Source of the DNA: Alphaproteobacteria bacterium
Lineage (GTDB): Bacteria > Pseudomonadota > Alphaproteobacteria > Rs-D84
NCBI GenBank assembly: GCA_017443235.1
Contig: JAFSOV010000017.1
Location: 32,947 to 96,946, forward strand
Reading direction: 5' to 3'
DNA: 64,000 bases
Shown here: in pieces, positions 8,668-63,373 of the stretch
How the letters are laid out: each line of letters starts with the position of its first letter
Numbering within the stretch: position 1 is the stretch's first letter
Notes under the pieces: generated by a model
Told to the model about the DNA's origin: nothing
What the model saw: only the letters and a program-made list of their open reading frames with translations
Database searches by the model: none
Position numbers and translations under genes: made by a program

Positions 8668-9234
8668 ATGAAGCGTTTTATTTTTATTTTATCCGCAATT
8701 TTTTTAACCGCGATGCCGGCGTTTGGGGCGGATGGCAAAAACACCTTTACCGGTTTTTATAAAAACCAATTATCGTTCAATATTGGCCAGGGTATAAACA
8801 GTGGATTCATATTACCCCCACCGAACCAATTCGTTCCATTTAACCTGTTCAGCCTAAGTTATTCGCAACCGACAACATTTTTTGGTGTTCCGGCGCGCCA
8901 ATCTTTAAACGTCAACCAGACATTGGGATACGGCGACAAATATGGTTGGCATTGGCGCGACTATACGATTCCAATGGTTATGTTATCGGGTGATGTGCGG
9001 TTATCAGAATACAAAAATTTCTATGTCGCCGCCGGCGCAGGTGTCGGTATGCAGGCACAACAGAACGAACGCCTGGGCGCAAAATTACTGTTTCAGTTCA
9101 AGGTTATTGCCGGTTGGCACATAAATGACAAATGGGGGTTTGAAATATTTATGCACCATTTTTCAAACGGCAACACCGCACCCCAGAACTATTCATACGC
9201 ATTTTACGGCATCGGTGTAAATTATAATTTTTGA
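8668..9234 (+). CDS. PagL-like lipid A deacylase / acyloxyacyl hydrolase outer-membrane protein
   Basis: Signal peptide, beta-barrel-like sequence, HHFSNGN catalytic-type motif, C-terminal aromatic residue. Confidence 0.6.
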   Translation: MKRFIFILSAIFLTAMPAFGADGKNTFTGFYKNQLSFNIGQGINSGFILPPPNQFVPFNLFSLSYSQPTTFFGVPARQSLNVNQTLGYGDKYGWHWRDYTIPMVMLSGDVRLSEYKNFYVAAGAGVGMQAQQNERLGAKLLFQFKVIAGWHINDKWGFEIFMHHFSNGNTAPQNYSYAFYGIGVNYNF

Positions 9235-9419
9235 TGGTTATTATTACTAAATAATTTGTGATTGCGCACATAAAACTGGCGCGACAACAAACCAAAAATC
9301 AAAGACAGTTCACTGAATGTGAATTTATATTTTGGATGTTTATCAAAGAATTTTTCTAAACAGAAAATCAGCGATTCTTTATGTAATTTTTCTAGATATT
9401 TATCTGCTTCTGATTGCAT
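9222..9419 (-). CDS. 65-aa cassette protein (class 1, KHPxY motif)
   Basis: ATG at 9419 with AAGGAA RBS. The track start at 9443 is a TTG. Homologous to ORF 15509-15691 (KESLIFCLEKFFDKHPKYKFTFSELSLIFGLL vs KEELITAVLDFYSKHPNYRMSQNEFVGLICAI). Confidence 0.6.
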   Translation of the reverse strand: MQSEADKYLEKLHKESLIFCLEKFFDKHPKYKFTFSELSLIFGLLSRQFYVRNHKLFSNNNHQKL

Positions 9420-9451
9420 TTTTAATTCCTTGGTTTTTTTCAAAAGTTATC

Positions 9452-9630
9452 AAAAAACCGTCCAGAAAAATCAAGACGGTTGGAGGTTAAAGACTATTAC
9501 ACCAGAAATAGGTGGGCTTATTCAATATATTCGCCTCCCTCCAACCATCGGTTGGAGGTATTTTGTGTCCCCTCGGACACTGGTGTAAAACATGGGTCTT
9601 TAATCCCCAATCAACAGAACACCCGTTGAC
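9452..9630 (-). ncRNA. structured leader RNA, cassette copy A
   Basis: Helices 9596-9603/9487-9494 and 9580-9587/9498-9505. CCTCCAACC (9558-9550), GGTTGGAGG (9546-9538) and CCTCCAACC (9486-9478), the last overlapping terminator 9481-9456 plus a T-run. Compensatory changes relative to copy B. The 5' end is only approximate. Confidence 0.65.
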
Positions 9631-9672
9631 GCCATAAATATACAATAAAACACAAAAAAATCAAATCAAAAA

Positions 9673-9770
9673 TAGTGGTTAGTGGATAGAGTAAGTGGTT
9701 AGTAGATTCTGGAATAGTTTCGTAATTGTGCGCTTATTCCAGATATAACTAACCACTAGCCACTAACACC
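9673..9770. repeat. palindromic array of TTAGTGG-type heptads around a CTGGAATA/TATTCCAG hairpin
   Basis: TAGTGGTTAGTGGATAGAGTAAGTGGTTAGTAG ... CTAACCACTAGCCACTAAC. Confidence 0.8.
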
Positions 9771-15508: not shown

Positions 15509-15691
15509 CTAAATATCACTCATCATTTGTTGGGTTATTGCACAAATTAAACCAACGAATTCATTTTGGGACATTCTGTAATTGGGATGTTTAGAATAAA
15601 AATCCAAAACCGCGGTAATCAATTCTTCTTTGCCGGAATAAACCTTTACTTTGGGTTTTGTAATATTTTCTCCTTTTGATTTATTTAACAA
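15509..15691 (-). CDS. ~55-60-aa cassette protein (class 1, KHPxY motif), start uncertain
   Basis: Homolog of 9222-9419. The track start TTG lies inside the leader terminator T-run. AAAGGAG is followed by ATT. No in-frame ATG lies near the 5' end. Confidence 0.5.
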   Translation of the reverse strand: MLNKSKGENITKPKVKVYSGKEELITAVLDFYSKHPNYRMSQNEFVGLICAITQQMMSDI

Positions 15692-15872
15692 AAAACCGCC
15701 CGGAAAAAATCAAGACGGTTGGAGGTTAAAGAACTATTACGTTAGAAATAGGTGGGCCTTATTCATTTATTCAGGCCCCCTCCAACCGATGGTTGGAGGG
15801 TTTTTATGTCCCCACGGACACTAACGTAATAGAGGTTCTTTAATCCCTCATCAACAGAACGCCTGTTGACAA
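15690..15872 (-). ncRNA. structured leader RNA, cassette copy B
   Basis: Helices 15835-15843/15726-15734 and 15821-15828/15738-15745. CCTCCAACC (15799-15791), GGTTGGAGG (15787-15779), CCTCCAACC (15725-15717). Terminator plus T-run ends about 15690. Confidence 0.65.
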
Positions 15873-15913: not shown

Positions 15914-15937
15914 TTCCAGAATCTACTAACCGCTAAC
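15914..15937. repeat. TTAGNGG-type heptads overlapping the stop codon of the upstream gene
   Basis: Minus-strand reading: GAGTTAGCGGTTAGTAGATTCTGGAA. Matches the arm of the 9673-9770 palindrome. Confidence 0.7.
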
Positions 15938-30606: not shown

Positions 30607-31218
30607 ATGTTAAAAAATATTGTAATTTTTGCACTGTGTTTTTTACCTGTTTTGTCTTTTGCAAACGATTGTGTTAAATACAAACAAACACCAAGTATAA
30701 ATGTAAATTCGCCGATATATAAAAAAAATATTATTCAATCAAATGAACAAATGGATAAATTTCACGGAAATGTGATTGCCACATTGGTTGAAGATTACGA
30801 CATTGCGGTTGATATATTTTCAACGCCTGGCGGATATTGTGTTGTATTAAAATCTGTGGATGCGTTGATTGGATATAACGATTTTTCTGTTAAAATTGAT
30901 GGTTCGCATAAATCGGGTTCTTGTTCATATAATGCGGTATTGAATCACGAAGATAAACATATAAATGCATATTTGTCTGTGATGGATGATTTAGGTATGG
31001 ATATAAACAGTTCGATATTTAATGCCGCAGATTCAATAATGCCAATATTTGTATCATCACGTGATGATATAGATTTTGCGGTGGAAGAAATAAATTATGA
31101 AATGCGTCAACATCCAGAATTGATTTTAATGAAACAAAAAATCAACGCAGCCCAAGAAATTCGTAATAAACGCGTTGACCAAAACGAAGATAATCACGAA
31201 TTAAAATCGTGTTTATAG
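30607..31218 (+). CDS. secreted protein with HExxH motif (putative Zn-metallopeptidase, DUF922-like?)
   Basis: Start at ATG 30607 (MLKNIVIFALCFLPVLSFA signal peptide). Contains LNHEDKHINAY. The track start at 30499 lies inside virB4. Confidence 0.45.
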   Translation: MLKNIVIFALCFLPVLSFANDCVKYKQTPSINVNSPIYKKNIIQSNEQMDKFHGNVIATLVEDYDIAVDIFSTPGGYCVVLKSVDALIGYNDFSVKIDGSHKSGSCSYNAVLNHEDKHINAYLSVMDDLGMDINSSIFNAADSIMPIFVSSRDDIDFAVEEINYEMRQHPELILMKQKINAAQEIRNKRVDQNEDNHELKSCL

Positions 31219-31239
31219 TGGTTAGTGTTAGTGGTTAGT
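31216..31239. repeat. TTAGTGG heptad array beginning at the stop codon
   Basis: TAGTGGTTAGTGTTAGTGGTTAGT. Confidence 0.8.
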
Positions 31240-31263
31240 AAAACGGCGCATTGCGCCGTTTTT
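31240..31263. terminator. bidirectional intrinsic terminator
   Basis: AAAACGGCGCATTGCGCCGTTTTT between two convergent genes. Confidence 0.8.
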
Positions 31264-31474
31264 AATTCATCTTGCATCGCAACATACAAAAACCGCGAGT
31301 GAATAACGTTATTAAAATATTTTCTGGAATTGGTTCTTTGCCGCATTCGTACCTGTGCCATTGTCTAACAGATATATGAAACATTTTCGCCAAATCTTTT
31401 GTTTTCATATTTTGATTTTTTCGTGTGCAACGCAATATTTTTCCAAAATACTTTGAATCAACCAATACAACCAT
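31262..31474 (-). CDS. 70-aa XRE-family helix-turn-helix protein (cassette class 2)
   Basis: MKTKDLAKMFHISVRQWHRYECGKEPIP is a typical HTH. GGAGG RBS. Paralog of 62627-62854. Confidence 0.75.
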   Translation of the reverse strand: MVVLVDSKYFGKILRCTRKNQNMKTKDLAKMFHISVRQWHRYECGKEPIPENILITLFTRGFCMLRCKMN

Positions 31475-31499
31475 TTTTTACCTCCATATTTTTATTGTT

Positions 31500-31651
31500 A
31501 AAAAACCGTCAATGACAGGTTGACGGTTGGAGGCTAGAAAACCACATATATAAGATGGGTGTCGCTTATTCAATATATTCGCGACCCTCCAACCAAGTGG
31601 AGTTTTATATATATAGGGATTTTCTAGACCCCGCAACGGTGTCATCCGCGC
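31500..31651 (-). ncRNA. structured leader RNA, cassette copy C
   Basis: S1 31627-31619/31542-31534. Hairpin 31585-31561 (GTCGC, loop, GCGAC). GGTTGGAGG 31594-31586 vs CCTCCAACC 31533-31525, overlapping terminator 31528-31504 plus a T-run. Confidence 0.7.
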
Positions 31652-31657
31652 AAGCGT

Positions 31658-31686
31658 ATTATAATTGAAAACGGTTGCGATTGCAA
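31658..31686 (-). promoter_or_regulatory. sigma70 promoter of cassette C, embedded in the dnaG terminator hairpin
   Basis: TTGCAA (31686-81), 17 nt, TATAAT (31663-58). Same architecture as 62367-62395. Confidence 0.65.
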
Positions 31687-31694
31687 CCGTTTTG

Positions 31695-31789
31695 CAACTA
31701 CCCCGCCACCGCTGGTGGCCCTCCCCTTCTGAATCCACCCCAAAAAATTTCATTTTTCGGGGGCCCCGGTATAAGAAGGGGACTATCCA
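31695..31789. repeat. CCCCTTC/GAAGGGG...GGGGTAG REP-like unit (variant)
   Basis: Minus-strand reading: TCCCCTTC...GAAGGGGAGGGCCACCAGCGGTGGCGGGGTAG. Related to 43914-43960, 54259-54394 and 62558-62603. Confidence 0.55.
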
Positions 31790-33403
31790 CTAAACCAACA
31801 TTTCAAATTTTTCACGCATACGGGAAATTTCATCGTCTATACGGCGGATTTCCACGCTTACATCATTTTCTCCGGCAAGACCACGCGCGGTTAAATCACG
31901 TTTTTGTTTTTCTAAACTTTCAATATATTTTTGAATCTTTAACGAAATTATATACTTTTCCGCGGAATTCAAATCTAAATCAAAGTTTGGTTTTATATTT
32001 GAATCCAAATCCAGGTTAAATTTACTAATAAAATCGCCATACCTTTCGGCAATTTCCGGATATTTATTTACAATGTATATAAGTATGTTTTTGATAACAT
32101 TATCAATTTCTGGAACTTCTATATTTGATGAATTTTTTGAACCGTTATAATCTCGCCATTCTTTATATCTGCGATTTTTATAATCACGTTCATATTCATA
32201 CTTTAATAAATTATCTTGTATTTTATCTGTGCTTTGTTTCAAGAATTTTTCTGCCTGGGTTCGACCGGATGGCGTTTTTATTAAAAAATTCTTATTTGCT
32301 ATATTCCACAGAAAATCAACCAAAGGAACCGCATTGTTTATAATTTTCTCCATTTCCCCCCTGCCCGATTTGCGCAGTATTTCATCCGGGTCTTTGCCGC
32401 CCGTCACAAATGCAAAACTGACATTCGAATTATCACGCAAGAACGGTAATATTATACCGCACGCACGTGCCGCGGCCTTTTGTCCCGCGTTATCACCATC
32501 AAAACAGAAAACAATATTCCGGTTTGCCTTGCATAAAATTGCGATATGGTCTTCGGTCAATGCGGTACCAAGTGGCGCAACCGTTTCACCAAAACCATTA
32601 CATTGCATTTGAATTGCATCTATTTGCCCCTCTACAATAATTGCGCGGTTTGCGCGGTGTATATTTTCGCGTGCAAAATTAAACCCAAACAAAGTTTGCC
32701 GTTTGTGAAACATTTCTGTGTCTGTGGTATTTATATATTTTGGCTCTGACCCGTCCAGGCTGCGCCCGGAAAAAGCAACAATTTGCCCCCGCGCATTAAA
32801 AATTGGAAACATCAATTTATCGCGAAAGAAATCGTACAGGCCATATTCACCGCGGCGTACCAAACCCGTTGCAATAAGTTTTTCTTGTTTTGTGTTCACA
32901 AATTTATTTGCAATTATGTTATTTTTTGGTGCGTACCCAATACCATATTTTTTTATCATTTCATCACTGAACCCGCGCCCACGTATGTAGGACAGCGCAT
33001 GTGCACCTTCGGGTGCGAATAATTTTTCCGCGTATATTTTTGCCGCCGCGGTTGTAATTGTCACATATGTTTCTTCGGCCTCGATTTGTTCTGCGGTTTT
33101 TGGTTTGTATTCCGGCAACTTTAATCCCGCCATATCGGCCAATTCGGCAATTGCGGTTTTGAAATCAACATGTTCACTTTCCATAGTAAAAGAAATAATA
33201 TCACCGTGTTTTCCGCAACCAAAACAGTGATAAAAACCTTTTTCTTCACTGACCGAAAAAGATGGTGTTTTTTCATTATGAAATGGGCAACACCCCCAAT
33301 AATTTTGACCTTTCTTGACCAGTGGTACACGACGGGATATAACGTCTACGATGGAAAGTCGTTCACGTAATTGGTCGGTAAAATTATTGTCATATTTCGC
33401 CAT
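31790..33403 (-). CDS. dnaG: DNA primase
   Basis: Zinc finger CPFHNEKTPSFSV...CFGCGKHGD. TOPRIM IIVEGQIDA. Confidence 0.9.
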   Translation of the reverse strand: MAKYDNNFTDQLRERLSIVDVISRRVPLVKKGQNYWGCCPFHNEKTPSFSVSEEKGFYHCFGCGKHGDIISFTMESEHVDFKTAIAELADMAGLKLPEYKPKTAEQIEAEETYVTITTAAAKIYAEKLFAPEGAHALSYIRGRGFSDEMIKKYGIGYAPKNNIIANKFVNTKQEKLIATGLVRRGEYGLYDFFRDKLMFPIFNARGQIVAFSGRSLDGSEPKYINTTDTEMFHKRQTLFGFNFARENIHRANRAIIVEGQIDAIQMQCNGFGETVAPLGTALTEDHIAILCKANRNIVFCFDGDNAGQKAAARACGIILPFLRDNSNVSFAFVTGGKDPDEILRKSGRGEMEKIINNAVPLVDFLWNIANKNFLIKTPSGRTQAEKFLKQSTDKIQDNLLKYEYERDYKNRRYKEWRDYNGSKNSSNIEVPEIDNVIKNILIYIVNKYPEIAERYGDFISKFNLDLDSNIKPNFDLDLNSAEKYIISLKIQKYIESLEKQKRDLTARGLAGENDVSVEIRRIDDEISRMREKFEMLV

Positions 33404-54194: not shown

Positions 54195-54258
54195 AATTGC
54201 ACCTTTGGTTATGTTACAATGTGATTATACTTTACGAATACTGAATTCGCAACCGCAA

Positions 54259-54394
54259 AAATCCCCTTCACATCGTGAAGGGGTGGATTGTGAGCATAGC
54301 GAACAAGACGGGGTAGGAATATTTATTATTTTTTATTACCACTACCCCACCGCTAATCGCGGTCCCCCCTTCGCTTGGCGAAGGGGACTTAACG
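54259..54394. mobile_element. 136-bp MITE-like element (two inverted REP units) flanked by an 18-bp direct repeat
   Basis: CTGAATTCGCAACCGCAA at 54241-54258 and at 54395-54412. Left unit AATCCCCTTC..GAAGGGG..GGGGTAG, an AT-rich centre, and the right unit is its inverse. Confidence 0.75.
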
Positions 54395-58215: not shown

Positions 58216-58292
58216 TGGTGGGTGGTATTGGACTCGAACCAACGACCTTTACGATGTCAACGTAACGCTCTAACCAACTGAGCTAACCACCC
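58216..58292 (-). tRNA. tRNA-Val (GAC)
   Basis: GGGTGGT acceptor, TTACG-TTGACAT-CGTAA anticodon arm, TTCGAGT T-loop, encoded CCA. Confidence 0.9.
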
Positions 58293-58318
58293 ATATTTTT
58301 CAAGTGTTCTCAGACCGG

Positions 58319-58375
58319 GAACCAACGACCTTTACGATGTCAACGTACGCGGCTTCCCAACCGAGCTAACCACCC
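58319..58375 (-). pseudogene. 5' fragment (about nt 1-57) of a tRNA-Val(GAC) copy
   Basis: GGGTGGTTAGCTCGGTTGGGAAGCCGCGTACGTTGACATCGTAAAGGTCGTTGGTTC, then unrelated sequence. The D arm is altered and the T-arm 3' half and acceptor 3' strand are missing. Confidence 0.7.
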
Positions 58376-58386
58376 AAACGAACGCC

Positions 58387-58414
58387 ATTATAACAAAGAA
58401 TTTCCCGATTGCAA
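58387..58414 (-). promoter_or_regulatory. sigma70 promoter driving the tRNA-Val fragment and tRNA-Val
   Basis: TTGCAA (58414-09), 16 nt, TATAAT (58392-87), about 11 nt before the fragment. Confidence 0.6.
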
Positions 58415-58445: not shown

Positions 58446-58600
58446 AGAAAAGCAGGAGGGTCATAACTACTCAAAGCAAAATAGTCCAGTGTATTGGGTA
58501 TTTCACTGGCCTCCTGCCATTGTGAAGTGTGCAGGATTTTATGTCCGCGCGGACATGCTTTGAGCAGGGCTATGACACCCCCTTGTACGGTTGCCCGTAC
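58446..58600 (-). ncRNA. candidate ~155-nt sRNA of unknown family
   Basis: TTGAAA (58635-30), 17 nt, TATAAT (58612-07). Several hairpins. A closing stem with a 3' CCTCCTGC followed by TTTTCTT. No plausible ORF. Confidence 0.35.
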
Positions 58601-60982: not shown

Positions 60983-62341
60983 ATGCCAAAAATAAAAAAA
61001 GTTTTAATTGCCAATCGTGGCGAAATTGCGTTGCGAATAATTCGCGCGTGTCGCGATATGGGTATTCGTACGGTCGCGGTTTATTCGACCATTGACCGTA
61101 ATGCTATGCATGTCCAATTGGCGGACGAATCGGTGTGTATTGGCCCGGGCCCGTCCAAGGATTCATACCTTAACGAATCGGCGATATTGACGGCGGCATT
61201 GTTGACCAATGCGGATGCAATTCACCCGGGTTATGGTTTTTTATCGGAACGTGCGGACTTTGTTCAAAAGGTTGAACAGCACGGTTTAATCTGGATTGGG
61301 CCGGACGCCGCAATGATAAATAAAATGGGCGACAAAGTGAACGCCAAGAAAACCGCCATTGAATGTGGGTTGCCGGTTGTGCCGGGTTCCGATGGCGCCG
61401 TTGAAACATTGGAAGACGCATTAAAATGGGGTGAAAAAATCGGTTATCCCGTTATGTTAAAGGCGGCCGCCGGTGGTGGTGGTCGTGGTATGCGACCCGT
61501 TATGTCGGCGGACCAAATGGCCGAGGCATTCGAAATCACCAAGAACGAGGCGCGCAGTGGTTTCGGTGATGATACACTGTATATGGAAAAATTATTGTTG
61601 CACCCGCGTCATATTGAATTTCAGGTCTTGGGCGATAAACACGGCAACGTTGTAATCTTTGGTGAGCGCGATTGTTCGTTGCAAAGAAAAAATCAAAAGG
61701 TTATGGAAGAATGCCCGGCCGCGGCGTTGACCCAGAAACAGCGTGACGATATGATTGAAATTTGCAAAACGGCCGCGAAAAAAATGGGCTATACCAATGC
61801 CGGCACTTTCGAATTTATGTACGAAGGCGGAAAATTCTATTTCTTGGAAATGAATACCCGGCTTCAGGTTGAACACCCGGTAACCGAAATGGTATATGGT
61901 GTCGATTTGGTGCGCGAACAAATTCGCATTGCCGCCGGCGAGAAATTAGGCTATACCCAGGCCAATGTTATTCCGCACGGCCACGCAATCGAATTTCGTA
62001 TCAATGCCGAAGACCCGCAAGACTTTGTTCCAAACCCGGGCAAAATCACATTGTATGCGCCGTCGGGTGGATTGGGGGTGCGTGTGGACAGTGCGGTTTA
62101 TACCGGATACACGATTCCACCAACATATGATTCGATGATTGCGAAATTGATTGTTCATGCACAATCGCGTTCGGCGTGCATTATGCGTGCGGAACGTGCA
62201 TTGGACGAATTTGTTATCGAAGGTGTTAAAACAACGATTCCATTGCAAAAGAAATTGTTAAATAACCGTGATGTTCGAACATTGAACTTTGATAATCATT
62301 GGTTGGAAGAATATTTGAAAAAAGAAAATAAAAAGAAGTAA
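60983..62341 (+). CDS. accC: biotin carboxylase
   Basis: KVLIANRGEIALRIIRA, ATP-grasp motifs, EMNTRLQVEHPVTE. Confidence 0.95.
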   Translation: MPKIKKVLIANRGEIALRIIRACRDMGIRTVAVYSTIDRNAMHVQLADESVCIGPGPSKDSYLNESAILTAALLTNADAIHPGYGFLSERADFVQKVEQHGLIWIGPDAAMINKMGDKVNAKKTAIECGLPVVPGSDGAVETLEDALKWGEKIGYPVMLKAAAGGGGRGMRPVMSADQMAEAFEITKNEARSGFGDDTLYMEKLLLHPRHIEFQVLGDKHGNVVIFGERDCSLQRKNQKVMEECPAAALTQKQRDDMIEICKTAAKKMGYTNAGTFEFMYEGGKFYFLEMNTRLQVEHPVTEMVYGVDLVREQIRIAAGEKLGYTQANVIPHGHAIEFRINAEDPQDFVPNPGKITLYAPSGGLGVRVDSAVYTGYTIPPTYDSMIAKLIVHAQSRSACIMRAERALDEFVIEGVKTTIPLQKKLLNNRDVRTLNFDNHWLEEYLKKENKKK

Positions 62342-62357
62342 GTGTTAGTGGTTAGTG
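62342..62357. repeat. TTAGTGG heptads immediately after the accC stop codon
   Basis: TAA-GTGTTAGTGGTTAGTG. Confidence 0.8.
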
Positions 62358-62366
62358 CGAAAACGG

Positions 62367-62395
62367 TTGCAATTGCGGCCGTTTTTATTTATAAT
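62367..62395 (+). promoter_or_regulatory. sigma70 promoter of cassette D, embedded in the accC terminator hairpin
   Basis: TTGCAA (62367-72), 17 nt, TATAAT (62390-95). Confidence 0.65.
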
Positions 62396-62401
62396 GTTTT
62401 C

Positions 62402-62554
62402 GCATTGGGTGACAACCATTGCGGGGTCTAGAAAACCCCTTTAACACAGCAAAATCTCCACTTGGTTGGAGGGTTGCGAATATATCGAATAAGCAACACT
62501 GTTTTGTGTTACAGTTTTCTAGCCTCCAACCGTCAATCATTTTGACGGTTTTTT
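62402..62554 (+). ncRNA. structured leader RNA, cassette copy D
   Basis: S1 62428-36/62514-22. Helix 62442-54/62502-11. Hairpin 62473-97. GGTTGGAGG 62464-72 vs CCTCCAACC 62523-31, overlapping terminator 62528-50 plus a T-run to 62554. Confidence 0.7.
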
Positions 62555-62557
62555 AAT

Positions 62558-62603
62558 CCCCTTAACATTGTGAAGGGGGGGACCACCGGGGGTGATGGGG
62601 TAG
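62558..62603. repeat. REP-like unit CCCCTTAACATTGTGAAGGGG..GGGGTAG between the leader terminator and the HTH ORF
   Basis: Same family as 43914-43960 and 54259-54394. Confidence 0.65.
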
Positions 62604-62626
62604 AAAAAAAACAAAAGGAGAGAAAA

Positions 62627-62854
62627 ATGGTCACATTGGTTGATGCGAAATATTTTGGCAATCTTTTACGATTTGCACGCAGGCACAGTCGCCTAAATTC
62701 AGACGAAGTTGCAAGGATATTTTCAATATCCGTTCGGCAATTGCATAGATATGAACAGGGCAAAGAAGTAATCCCGTGTAATATTTTACAATCTTTGTTT
62801 CATCATGGATTCTGTTTGTTGCGGTGCCGACGCATACCACCAAAACACAAATAG
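62627..62854 (+). CDS. 75-aa XRE-family helix-turn-helix protein (cassette class 2)
   Basis: ATG 62627 with AAGGAG RBS. MVTLVDAKYFGNLLRFARRH...VARIFSISVRQLHRYEQGKEVIP. Paralog of 31262-31474. Confidence 0.75.
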   Translation: MVTLVDAKYFGNLLRFARRHSRLNSDEVARIFSISVRQLHRYEQGKEVIPCNILQSLFHHGFCLLRCRRIPPKHK

Positions 62855-62877
62855 AAAACGGGCGCGATTGCGCCCGC
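62854..62877. terminator. bidirectional intrinsic terminator
   Basis: GAAAACGGGCGCGATTGCGCCCGC between two convergent genes. Confidence 0.7.
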
Positions 62878-62908
62878 ACTAACCACTACCACTAACACTA
62901 ACCACTAA
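62877..62908. repeat. inverted TTAGTGG heptad array abutting the sspB stop codon
   Basis: CACTAACCACTACCACTAACACTAACCACTAA. Confidence 0.8.
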
Positions 62909-63373
62909 TCACTTCTTCCGCCGTCTAAATTCATCCAATGATACAACGCGGCCGGTGTCGGGAATTGTGTCACCCGTTCCTTCCAATGGTAATTCTATAT
63001 CATTGTCCGGTGCAGACGGTTTCGGGCGTTTATTAAACGACAATATAAAATCAACCGACGGGTCTTTGAATTCCACCAATGCCGAAAAAGGAACGCGAAT
63101 AAAAAACGGCCGCCCATCAAACGTCAATTGAACACCAAATTCTTTGTCCGACACGTGCAGGTTATTATAAGAATACTGCAACACAATCGTCATTATGTCC
63201 GGGTATCGTATACGCAGGAAATCCGGCAATACAACCCCCGCATCATGCGTGCGAAATGTTATAAAGAAATGCGTCCCGTCACCCAGTCCGTTTATCTGCG
63301 CAAAAACCAACGCATCACGCACCACAGATTTTAACGCCGTGTCCAACAAAGCCTGATAGTCTATTTTTGCCAT
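62909..63373 (-). CDS. sspB: ClpXP adaptor SspB (alphaproteobacterial type)
   Basis: HFFITFRTHDAGVVLPDFLRIRYPDIMTIVLQYSYNNLHV...FIRVPFSALVEFKDPSVDF. Confidence 0.7.
   Translation of the reverse strand: MAKIDYQALLDTALKSVVRDALVFAQINGLGDGTHFFITFRTHDAGVVLPDFLRIRYPDIMTIVLQYSYNNLHVSDKEFGVQLTFDGRPFFIRVPFSALVEFKDPSVDFILSFNKRPKPSAPDNDIELPLEGTGDTIPDTGRVVSLDEFRRRKK

Follow-up and report, generated by a model that had tools for sequence, protein, structure and literature searches.

In a 64,000-nt stretch of an alphaproteobacterial genome (contig JAFSOV010000017.1; hereafter the window), the region between the stop codon of accC and the opposite-strand stop codon of sspB (62342-62908) carries an RNA of about 150 nt followed by a small helix-turn-helix (HTH) gene. 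The RNA is a real, strongly covarying and previously uncatalogued leader RNA family with terminator/antiterminator logic of a known kind. Its anatomy, the covariation of its helices, the concerted changes of three elements named b, c and c', the overlap of c' with the terminator and the fixed place of the RNA before open reading frames (ORFs) are all directly observed. Judged from these sequence comparisons, the copy at this site (copy D) probably belongs to a multi-copy 5' leader RNA that is specific to the lineage and works in cis as a transcription attenuator, with termination as the default (probability about 0.6).

Anatomy of the leader RNA

Every element named in an earlier note on this DNA was found where that note had placed it, and its proposal of a structured plus-strand RNA with its own promoter and terminator is supported. 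Three elements had been missed, namely b (CTCCA), the hairpin Ha (GGGG/CCCC, 62423-39) and the hairpin Hb (ACTGT/ACAGT, 62498-62515). All features of copy D described in this section lie on the plus strand. The promoter, TTGCAA-17-TATAAT (62367-62395), is carried by the accC terminator hairpin, as the note had said, and is the only sigma-70-like site within 62250-63000. The hairpin itself is a 12-pair terminator-like site with a T-run (62359-62386) that holds the -35 hexamer TTGCAA (62367-62372), and a hairpin of this type is also kept 5' of other HTH-type copies. The leader RNA extends over 62402-62554, about 153 nt from its deduced start to the T-run, both ends being deduced, and scores 156.7 bits with the covariance model R1 described below. 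The folding energy of 62402-62556 is -53.2 kcal/mol (z = -5.3).

The RNA begins with the 5' hairpin P0, GCATTGG...CCATTGC (62402-62422). The following segment (62423-62439) consists of a (GGGG, 62423-26), the 5' strand of helix P1 (CTAGAAAAC, 62428-36) and a' (CCCC, 62436-39); it can form the local hairpin Ha, or alternatively a can pair with CCUC of c' and the loop with the 3' strand of P1. Next comes the 5' strand of helix P2 (62442-62454), which pairs with 62502-11 and is hypervariable among copies. Element b (CTCCA, 62456-62460) is the upstream partner of c and is proposed to serve as an anti-antiterminator, and element c (GGTTGGAGG, 62464-62472) has either b or c' as its partner. The hairpin P3, GTTGC/GCAAC (62473-62497), encloses a conserved 15-nt loop, GAATATATCGAATAA, and the hairpin Hb (62498-62515) has an 8-nt loop that is the 3' strand of P2. 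These are followed by the 3' strand of P1 (GTTTTCTAG, 62514-62522) and by c' (CCTCCAACC, or CCUCCAACC as RNA; 62523-62531), of which the 5' part can pair with a and the whole with c. The intrinsic terminator, AACCGTCAA/TTGACGGTT and a T-run (62528-62554, stem 62528-50), starts within c', the last 4 nt of CCTCCAACC being the base of its stem. The pairing of GGTTGGAGG with CCTCCAACC that the note had described as overlapping the terminator is present with 9/9 complementarity, and it covaries in rare variants.

Collection of copies and helix covariation

Related loci were collected by a scan of one genome from each species, with the two arms of the invariant helix as the query, c and c' being fixed by the search pattern. 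The scan yielded 72 loci, one of which was a chance match in Chloroflexi. The other loci, of which there are several per genome, lie in metagenome-assembled genomes (MAGs) from the gut with the labels Candidatus Enterousia, Alphaproteobacteria or Rickettsiales. Ca. Enterousia belongs to the order Rs-D84, uncultured gut bacteria with genomes of less than 1 Mb and few recognisable regulators (PMC12306168). R1 was built from 39 short-type copies and found at least 83 copies in the 72 loci and the window, which was also searched with BLAST and nhmmer. Comparison of the leader RNA with phage and plasmid collections using blastn gave no match.

Covariation was measured on a model-guided alignment of 83 copies and 38 pairs, with 500 shuffles and slid partners as controls. 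Paired cells amounted to 95.0% (82.1% in the shuffled alignments), pairs with changes on both sides to 30 of 38 (shuffled, 17.5) and the covariation score to 0.396 (shuffled, 0.162). The observed pairing and covariation values were reached in 0 of 500 shuffles, and sliding the partners by 1-3 columns lowered pairing to at most 44%. Changes on both sides of the pair were seen in 6/6 pairs of P0, 7/7 of P1, 5/5 of P3, 4/4 of Hb and 3/6 of the terminator, with Hb 99.7% paired and the terminator helix 98.6% paired across the family. The same pattern appeared in a plain MAFFT alignment, and RNAalifold recovered P0, GRGG:CCUC (a:c'), P1, P3, Hb and the terminator unaided.

Helix P2 is too variable to align and was therefore assessed, together with P1, in an alignment-free manner by comparing cognate with non-cognate pairs of 5' and 3' segments. 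The mean duplex energy was -8.0 kcal/mol for cognate and -2.5 kcal/mol for non-cognate P1 segments, and -10.0 versus -4.7 kcal/mol for P2; the cognate duplex was in the best 5% in 68/76 copies for P1 and 57/76 for P2. Strong covariation is thus seen for P0, P1, P2, P3, Hb and the terminator, including the three helices that had been drawn previously (P1, then called S1, the inner helix P2 and the GTTGC/GCAAC hairpin P3). For Ha (GGGG/CCYC) the independent support is modest (78.6% paired, GAGG variants of a always occurring with a CCUC partner), and the same G-run pairs with c' in the RNAalifold consensus. G-U cells outnumber A-C cells by 126 to 18 and the sense strand folds more stably in 70/76 copies, which places the constraint on the RNA-sense strand. 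The 15-nt loop of P3 is conserved in sequence (consensus GAWAUA...RAAUAA) while the stems vary.

Proposed switch elements and terminator overlap

Both b and c' are complementary to element c. In copies A and B of the window, which are of the long type, b comprises 8-9 nt (CCTCCAACC in full) and together with c makes a perfect 9-bp hairpin. Copies that escape the c/c' search pattern were sought with nhmmer and the covariance model, and seven were found. In four of these, b, c and c' change in concert: L032:150-289 (b CTCCTGACC, c GGTCAGGAGG, c' CCTCCTGACC), L002:6046-6197 (b CCTTCTGC, c GCAGGAGG, c' CCTCCTGCC), a divergent copy at 58447-58600 of the window (b CCTGC, c GCAGGAGG, c' CCTCCTGC) and L026:1044-1230 (b CTTCCAAT, c GGATTGGATGG, c' CTTCCAATCC). 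The central pairing TTGG/CCAA is replaced in these variants by TCAGG/CCTGA, CAGG/CCTG or ATTGG/CCAAT. In a fifth variant, L057:6388-6554, c' alone is altered (CTCCAGCC) and the pair is retained as G-U. In a cross-pairing matrix the c:c' duplex of each variant was the best or near-best for that variant among the combinations tested.

The terminators of the family have at least six different stems (starting AACCGTC.., CCGCAT.., ACCGCTTTT.., CCACCA.., GCCATCTTTT.. and CCACTC..), all of which begin inside the last 2-4 nt of c', and the overlap of c:c' with the terminator is 2-4 nt in all copies. The copy L032:150-289 is minimal, having only b, c, P3, Hb, c' and the terminator before an ORF, and thereby marks the core of the device.

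The earlier note had left open whether the interleaved helices form a pseudoknot or mutually exclusive folds. The 5' strand of P1 is the loop of Ha (GRGG/CCYC) and the 3' strand of P2 is the loop of Hb. P2 occupies 7-9 nt of the 8-12-nt Hb loop (median 7 of 8 nt) and leaves no free nucleotide on the 3' side of the loop in 73/81 copies, and P2 and Hb covary independently of each other. From the sequences, P2 and Hb are more likely to be alternatives than parts of a pseudoknot; with the b element, and with Ha and Hb competing with P1 and P2, the question leans to alternative folds.

Position relative to downstream genes

Across the family, 6-7 nt separate the end of the -10 box, often of the extended form TGnTATAAT, from the first base of the RNA, and 60 of the 69 copies scored match the sigma-70 consensus at 9 or more of 12 positions. 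The RNA itself has a length of 150-180 nt, with an intrinsic terminator at its 3' end. In 72/83 copies the T-run is followed within 40 nt (median 20-25 nt), on the same strand, by a Shine-Dalgarno (SD) sequence and a start codon. In copy D, a promoter scan of 62250-63000 found none between the T-run and the ORF, in line with the earlier note, which saw no separate promoter for the HTH gene, and this, together with the short distance in most copies, makes expression by read-through the natural inference. A coding leader peptide was rejected, 75/83 leader copies having stop codons in all three frames.

Downstream of 38 copies, nearly all of them of the short form, are genes for small XRE-like or HTH-like proteins of 70-130 amino acids (aa). 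Another 29 precede genes for signal-peptide proteins of about 200-330 aa without a Pfam family, one protein being 1660 aa long, and a few, including copies A and B of the window, precede a further family of small proteins. The RNA had been taken to belong to the HTH cassette; its presence before unrelated gene classes, including the signal-peptide proteins of about 300 aa that lack the heptad arrays of the cassette, marks it instead as a general leader. Searches of Pfam and of PDB with the secreted protein of about 300 aa returned nothing significant.

In copy D the gene behind the leader (62627-62854, plus strand) encodes a 75-aa XRE-like HTH protein and is preceded by the SD sequence GGAGAG (62617-22). 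Its product scored 25.3 bits with Pfam HTH_19 (cut-off 30.2) and 21.8 bits with HTH_31 (cut-off 27), and gave E = 0.007 against HipB(Lp). A homologue search yielded only 10 close relatives with 60-93% identity, found in this lineage alone, and so left the family no larger; the homologue clusters carry precomputed PF12844 and PF13560. The start codon lies 72 nt past the T-run, an unusually long gap that is explained by a GC-rich mini-repeat, CCCCTT..GAAGGGG GGACCACCGGGGGTGATGGGGTAG (62558-62603, plus strand), inserted in this spacer.

The order RNA, terminator, small protein had also been likened to type III toxin-antitoxin loci, in which an RNA antitoxin and a terminator precede a protein toxin. 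Gene order alone fits such a locus. The RNA is repeat-free, since Tandem Repeats Finder (TRF) reported no tandem repeats in 62402-62554 and repeats only in the heptad array at 62877-62913, and the XRE-like HTH proteins, orphan secreted proteins of about 300 aa and single 1660-aa protein downstream include no endoribonuclease. The likeness is refuted by this combination, and a toxin-antitoxin function is regarded as extremely improbable.

Several observations concern individual downstream genes. The further small-protein family comprises ORFs of 51-65 aa with the motif F[FY].KHPKY[KR] and without a Pfam match; members are located at 9222-9419 and about 15509-15691 of the window (both minus strand), at L028:3313-3468 and downstream of L002:6046-6197. 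Two IMG/VR contigs that are viral only by classification (L073:12104-13164 and L074:852-3264) carry a long-type leader before a 316-aa secreted protein. The start of a 450-aa secreted protein overlaps the stop of the 316-aa gene in an operon-like manner, and methyltransferase-like and phospholipase D (PLD)-nuclease-like ORFs adjoin these genes.

Proposed mechanism and alternatives

Transcription would start about 6-7 nt past the conserved -10 box, and the leader would fold into one of two states. In the ground state (T), composed of a:c', P1, P2, b:c, P3 and the terminator, c (GGUUGGAGG) would be held by the upstream b (CUCCA[ACC]). P1 and P2 would pair the 5' domain across the RNA, and GGGG (a) would pair with CCUC of c'. 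The base of the intrinsic terminator would then be made by the 3' end of c', RNA polymerase would stop, the RNA of about 150 nt would be released and the downstream gene would be off. In state A, composed of Ha, Hb, P3 and c:c', the 5' domain and the 3' strand of P2 would be locked in the local hairpins Ha and Hb, and the 9-bp c:c' helix would take away the base of the terminator stem beside the U-tract, permitting read-through into the promoter-less ORF. In short-type copies b would cover only UGGAG of c and leave GGU as a toehold for ACC of c'; as the same ACC is also needed by the terminator, a kinetic window for competition would result. That the cell populates both states and employs them in regulation is our inference, as is the choice between them by a trans factor (protein, small molecule or RNA). 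Its contact would probably be at the conserved P3 loop or the junction; candidate contact points are the P3 loop (GAWAUA...RAAUAA), the GNRA-like P0 loop of long-type copies and the junction.

Several points weigh against this attenuator reading. Elements c and c' are invariant in 78/83 copies, partly as a result of the pattern used for locus collection, and the covariation of c:c' consists of four compensatory variants of three sequence types. In L026b, a base common to b and c' mismatches c, a hint that something besides pairing with c may keep b and c' alike. P1/P2 and c:c' could also occur together in a pseudoknot instead of excluding each other. The terminator state is the predicted minimum-free-energy fold in the copies inspected, and the terminator form is predicted to be favoured over the c:c' form by 8.8 +/- 2.7 kcal/mol in the short type and 13.9 +/- 5.3 kcal/mol in the long type. 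With a gap of 9-14 kcal/mol, the antiterminator would need strong help or kinetic control. On these predicted energies it may form only rarely, in which case the element may be mainly a small RNA (sRNA) gene with a leaky terminator. This large gap is the main weakness of the attenuator reading and keeps alive two rivals, one in which the terminated RNA is the product and one in which a protein renders the polymerase resistant to the terminator, without a change of RNA conformation.

According to the first, the leader is a trans-acting sRNA gene resembling sRNA-Xcc1, whose terminated product of about 150 nt would act through the P3 loop or by protein binding, the ORF being expressed by leakage through the terminator. 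The strong promoter and strong terminator, the very stable terminated fold and the less favourable antiterminator form, the conserved 15-nt P3 loop between variable stems, the weak Rfam similarity of the core to sRNA-Xcc1, a Northern-verified 88-nt sRNA, and the fifth window copy, which has no downstream ORF, would all suit such a gene. It is nevertheless considered unlikely: the position of 72/83 copies within 40 nt of a same-strand SD and ORF leaves no room for a promoter, and an sRNA gene needs neither the concerted change of b, c and c' nor the constant overlap of c' with terminators that themselves differ. The sRNA and attenuator roles are compatible with each other.

According to the second, the leader would be the recruitment or modification site of a dedicated antitermination factor, comparable to the LoaP leader hairpin, RfaH/ops or the HK022 put RNA. 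Such a site would be consistent with the conserved P3 hairpin loop just 5' of the terminator in many operon leaders, with the strong thermodynamic preference for the terminator form and with a cargo rich in secreted and surface-type proteins, which is typical of the regulons of NusG paralogues (RfaH, LoaP). Alternative pairing, by contrast, has as its signature the overlap of c' with the terminator and the joint changes of b, c and c', neither of which such a factor would need, and no candidate factor came to light, although none was looked for. This explanation appears improbable, and attenuation by partner exchange is preferred.

Comparison with known RNA families

The Rfam scan of the whole window at gathering thresholds returned only tRNAs, and no published description of this leader RNA was found in the literature. 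Permissive Rfam scans gave sub-threshold matches to sRNA-Xcc1 (RF02221) only, with 33.2 bits for copy D, 28.3 for copy C and 25.6 for copy B (gathering threshold 53), while copy A and the two copies in L032 had no match to it within the E-value limits applied. No named family reaches threshold, in line with the earlier note, which could not assign the RNA to one.

Xcc1 is a verified 88-nt sRNA (PMC2996969) located directly 5' of the small gene symE in Xanthomonas integron cassettes (bioRxiv 10.1101/2025.06.18.660453). A search of the plasmid collection with the Rfam consensus found no Xcc1 locus, and the comparison was thus made through the Rfam model only. In one of its predicted folds the core of the leader has, like Xcc1, an outer helix of 8-9 bp (c:c') around two hairpins, the first with an A/U-rich AAUA...UAA loop, and state A (c:c', P3 and Hb) has the shape of the Rfam Xcc1 model, whether by homology or by convergence. 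In contrast to the Xcc1 model of about 88 nt, the Xcc1-like core is only the 3' half of an RNA of 150-180 nt and one of its two competing folds. The Enterousia RNA has double the length and additionally possesses a 5' domain, the b element and a separate terminator, and no integron context was seen around it.

As in trp-type leaders (1:2/2:3/3:4) and riboswitch platforms, the leader is promoter-proximal and its three consecutive segments b, c and c' have mutually exclusive pairings. As in attenuators, its last segment (c') is shared with an intrinsic terminator just 5' of the regulated ORF: copy D has an intrinsic terminator between promoter and ORF with no intervening promoter, and the alternative helix c:c', which overlaps the terminator, shows compensatory change in four variants. 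Unlike classical attenuators, it has no leader peptide, no known aptamer and no Rfam family at threshold; a second layer of partner exchange (Ha/P1, Hb/P2, a:c') surrounds the switch; and many copies are present in genomes of less than 1 Mb, before unrelated gene families.

Multi-copy second-messenger riboswitches include c-di-GMP-I/II in Clostridioides and GEMM-Ib in Geobacter. The present family resembles them in that one leader is reused before many surface- or secreted-protein and regulator genes per genome, and differs in lacking a sequence or structure match in Rfam and in that no ligand is implied by gene context. A T-box, in which a conserved UGGN bulge would be expected to pair with the NCCA end of tRNA, was considered and rejected, there being no T-box match in Rfam and the c variants GGTCAGGAGG and GCAGGAGG lacking UGG.

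Heptad arrays and cassette mobility

The flanking genes accC (biotin carboxylase domains) and sspB (PF04386) have identities backed by Pfam. The left heptad array of copy D, GTGTTAG TGGTTAG TG (62342-62357, plus strand), directly follows the accC stop codon (62339-41) and is the left arm of the inverted repeat of the cassette, and the right array (62877-62908, plus strand) consists of 5.6 inverted units, CACTAAC, and abuts the sspB stop codon. The ends form a 22-nt inverted repeat with 91% complementarity (62338-62359 versus 62875-62896). Of the 3' end described previously, the inverted array stands and the terminator ascribed to the HTH gene does not: in the hairpin at 62858-62877 the T-run is on the minus strand, which makes this hairpin the terminator of sspB.

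Within the 64 kb, heptad arrays are found only at these cassettes. In addition to the two of copy D, (TTAGTGG)n arrays are located at 31215-31240, 31775-31792, 9672-9766 and 15923-15936. They adjoin or run into the stop codons of the neighbouring genes (dnaG TAG, lipoprotein-like gene TAG, sspB TGA, accC TAA). Since the unit length of 7 is no multiple of 3, three or more heptads in a row place a stop codon in every frame. The arrays at 9672-9766, upstream of copy A, are an 'empty' inverted pair around a 40-nt hairpin, and similar empty pairs were seen in L047, L056 and L002. A GC-rich mini-repeat distinct from the arrays consists of a CCCCTTC...GAAGGGG hairpin and, after it, GGACC..GGTGGGGTAG; it is inserted at varied positions in or near cassettes (62558-62603, about 31698-31760 and 54257-54363 of the window, and L034:2275-2345).

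Inverted heptad arrays flank HTH-type cassettes in many genomes, and leaders of large secreted proteins are without them. Comparison of L034:2150-2960 and L017:2500-3000 with 31100-31900 and 62240-63010 of the window showed the cassette in opposite orientation relative to the flanking genes at two orthologous sites, one after accC and one between dnaG and the lipoprotein-like gene; opposite orientations at the same sites indicate that the cassette inverts or re-inserts. L017 lacks the heptad arrays, and its HTH gene looks degenerate. A further locus, L002:1952-2139 (minus strand), is chimeric: its 5' half (5' strand of P1, TGTCATGAC) does not fit its 3' half (GTTTTCTAG), and a frameshift interrupts the HTH ORF downstream, which looks like recombination between a long-type and a short-type copy.

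With terminal inverted repeats and copies at several sites, the cassette is comparable to miniature inverted-repeat transposable elements (MITEs) and invertible mini-cassettes, which it resembles in its terminal inverted repeats, many copies, insertion at gene ends and varying orientation. It differs from a MITE in that its cargo is a complete transcription unit (promoter, leader, regulator gene) and its arms are arrays of 7-nt units placing a stop codon in each frame; no transposase or recombinase was linked to the heptad arrays, although no search was aimed at one. A purely DNA-level explanation would hold that the inverted repeats serve the needs of a small mobile element and not RNA structure. 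The inverted arrays that bound HTH-type cassettes at copy D and at many other loci, the multiple copies and the opposite orientations at the same intergenic site in related genomes are in its favour. The RNA, however, is also found without heptad arrays before genes for large secreted proteins, its pairs are strand-specific, as the G-U and A-C counts given above show, promoter, terminator and ORF always have the same polarity, and the pairing of the helices is kept while their sequences diverge completely. Mobility explains the cassette and not the RNA, and a purely DNA-level repeat, being very improbable, is rejected in favour of a structured leader.

Other copies in the window

The window contains five copies rather than the four counted earlier, the additional one being the divergent copy at about 58447-58600, and their R1 scores are 156.7, 141.7, 62.8, 56.4 and 23.2 bits. 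All except copy D are on the minus strand. Copy C (31499-31651, 141.7 bits) is of the short type and is followed by a 70-aa XRE-like ORF (31262-31474, minus strand); its cassette, bounded on either side by heptad arrays, separates dnaG from a convergent gene. Copy A (9451-9629, 62.8 bits) belongs to the long type, having one additional hairpin and a b:c helix of 9 bp, and precedes a 65-aa ORF (9222-9419, minus strand). Copy B (15689-15869, 56.4 bits), also of the long type, precedes a small relative of the copy A ORF (about 15509-15691, minus strand). Where this ORF starts is uncertain; it has no obvious ATG and may begin with TTG or ATT, or may be decaying.

The fifth copy (58447-58600, 23.2 bits) has its own TTGAAA-17-TATAAT promoter and a U-run directly after c', without a separate terminator hairpin. 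No ORF was found 3' of it, a tRNA locus being present there instead; this region (58219-58400, minus strand) contains a second promoter-like site, TTGCAA..TATAAT, a degenerate partial tRNA duplicate and an intact tRNA gene (58219-58292). A weak match of the covariance model at 54257-54363 was rejected as a copy of the RNA and represents the different GC-rich mini-repeat.

Significance for the Enterousia lineage

Five copies of an elaborate leader RNA are present in one 64-kb window and related genomes have many more, before lineage-specific secreted proteins and small XRE regulators. The multi-copy and partly mobile distribution in reduced genomes is unusual, and the possible link of this family to sRNA-Xcc1, which lies 5' of symE in integron cassettes, suggests a wider theme of leader RNAs that travel with a small gene in mobile cassettes. 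The family is a well-supported orphan candidate for a cis-regulatory RNA or riboswitch, with 150-180 nt, six covarying helices and two competing folds, and the covariance model R1 is directly usable for annotating these genomes. Only tentatively, and with considerable doubt, the leader may be viewed as a new signal-sensing RNA class that would be a riboswitch itself or be targeted by a dedicated RNA-binding regulator. In that case it would be a master switch for the secreted-protein repertoire and XRE regulators of gut Alphaproteobacteria with genomes of less than 1 Mb, in which the HTH copies would have been spread and inverted as heptad-bounded mini-cassettes and one input would toggle termination at dozens of loci through partner exchange (a:a'/c', c:b/c', P1/Ha, P2/Hb). 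If the switch is real, it would define a regulon and a regulatory signal for organisms that are not yet cultivable.

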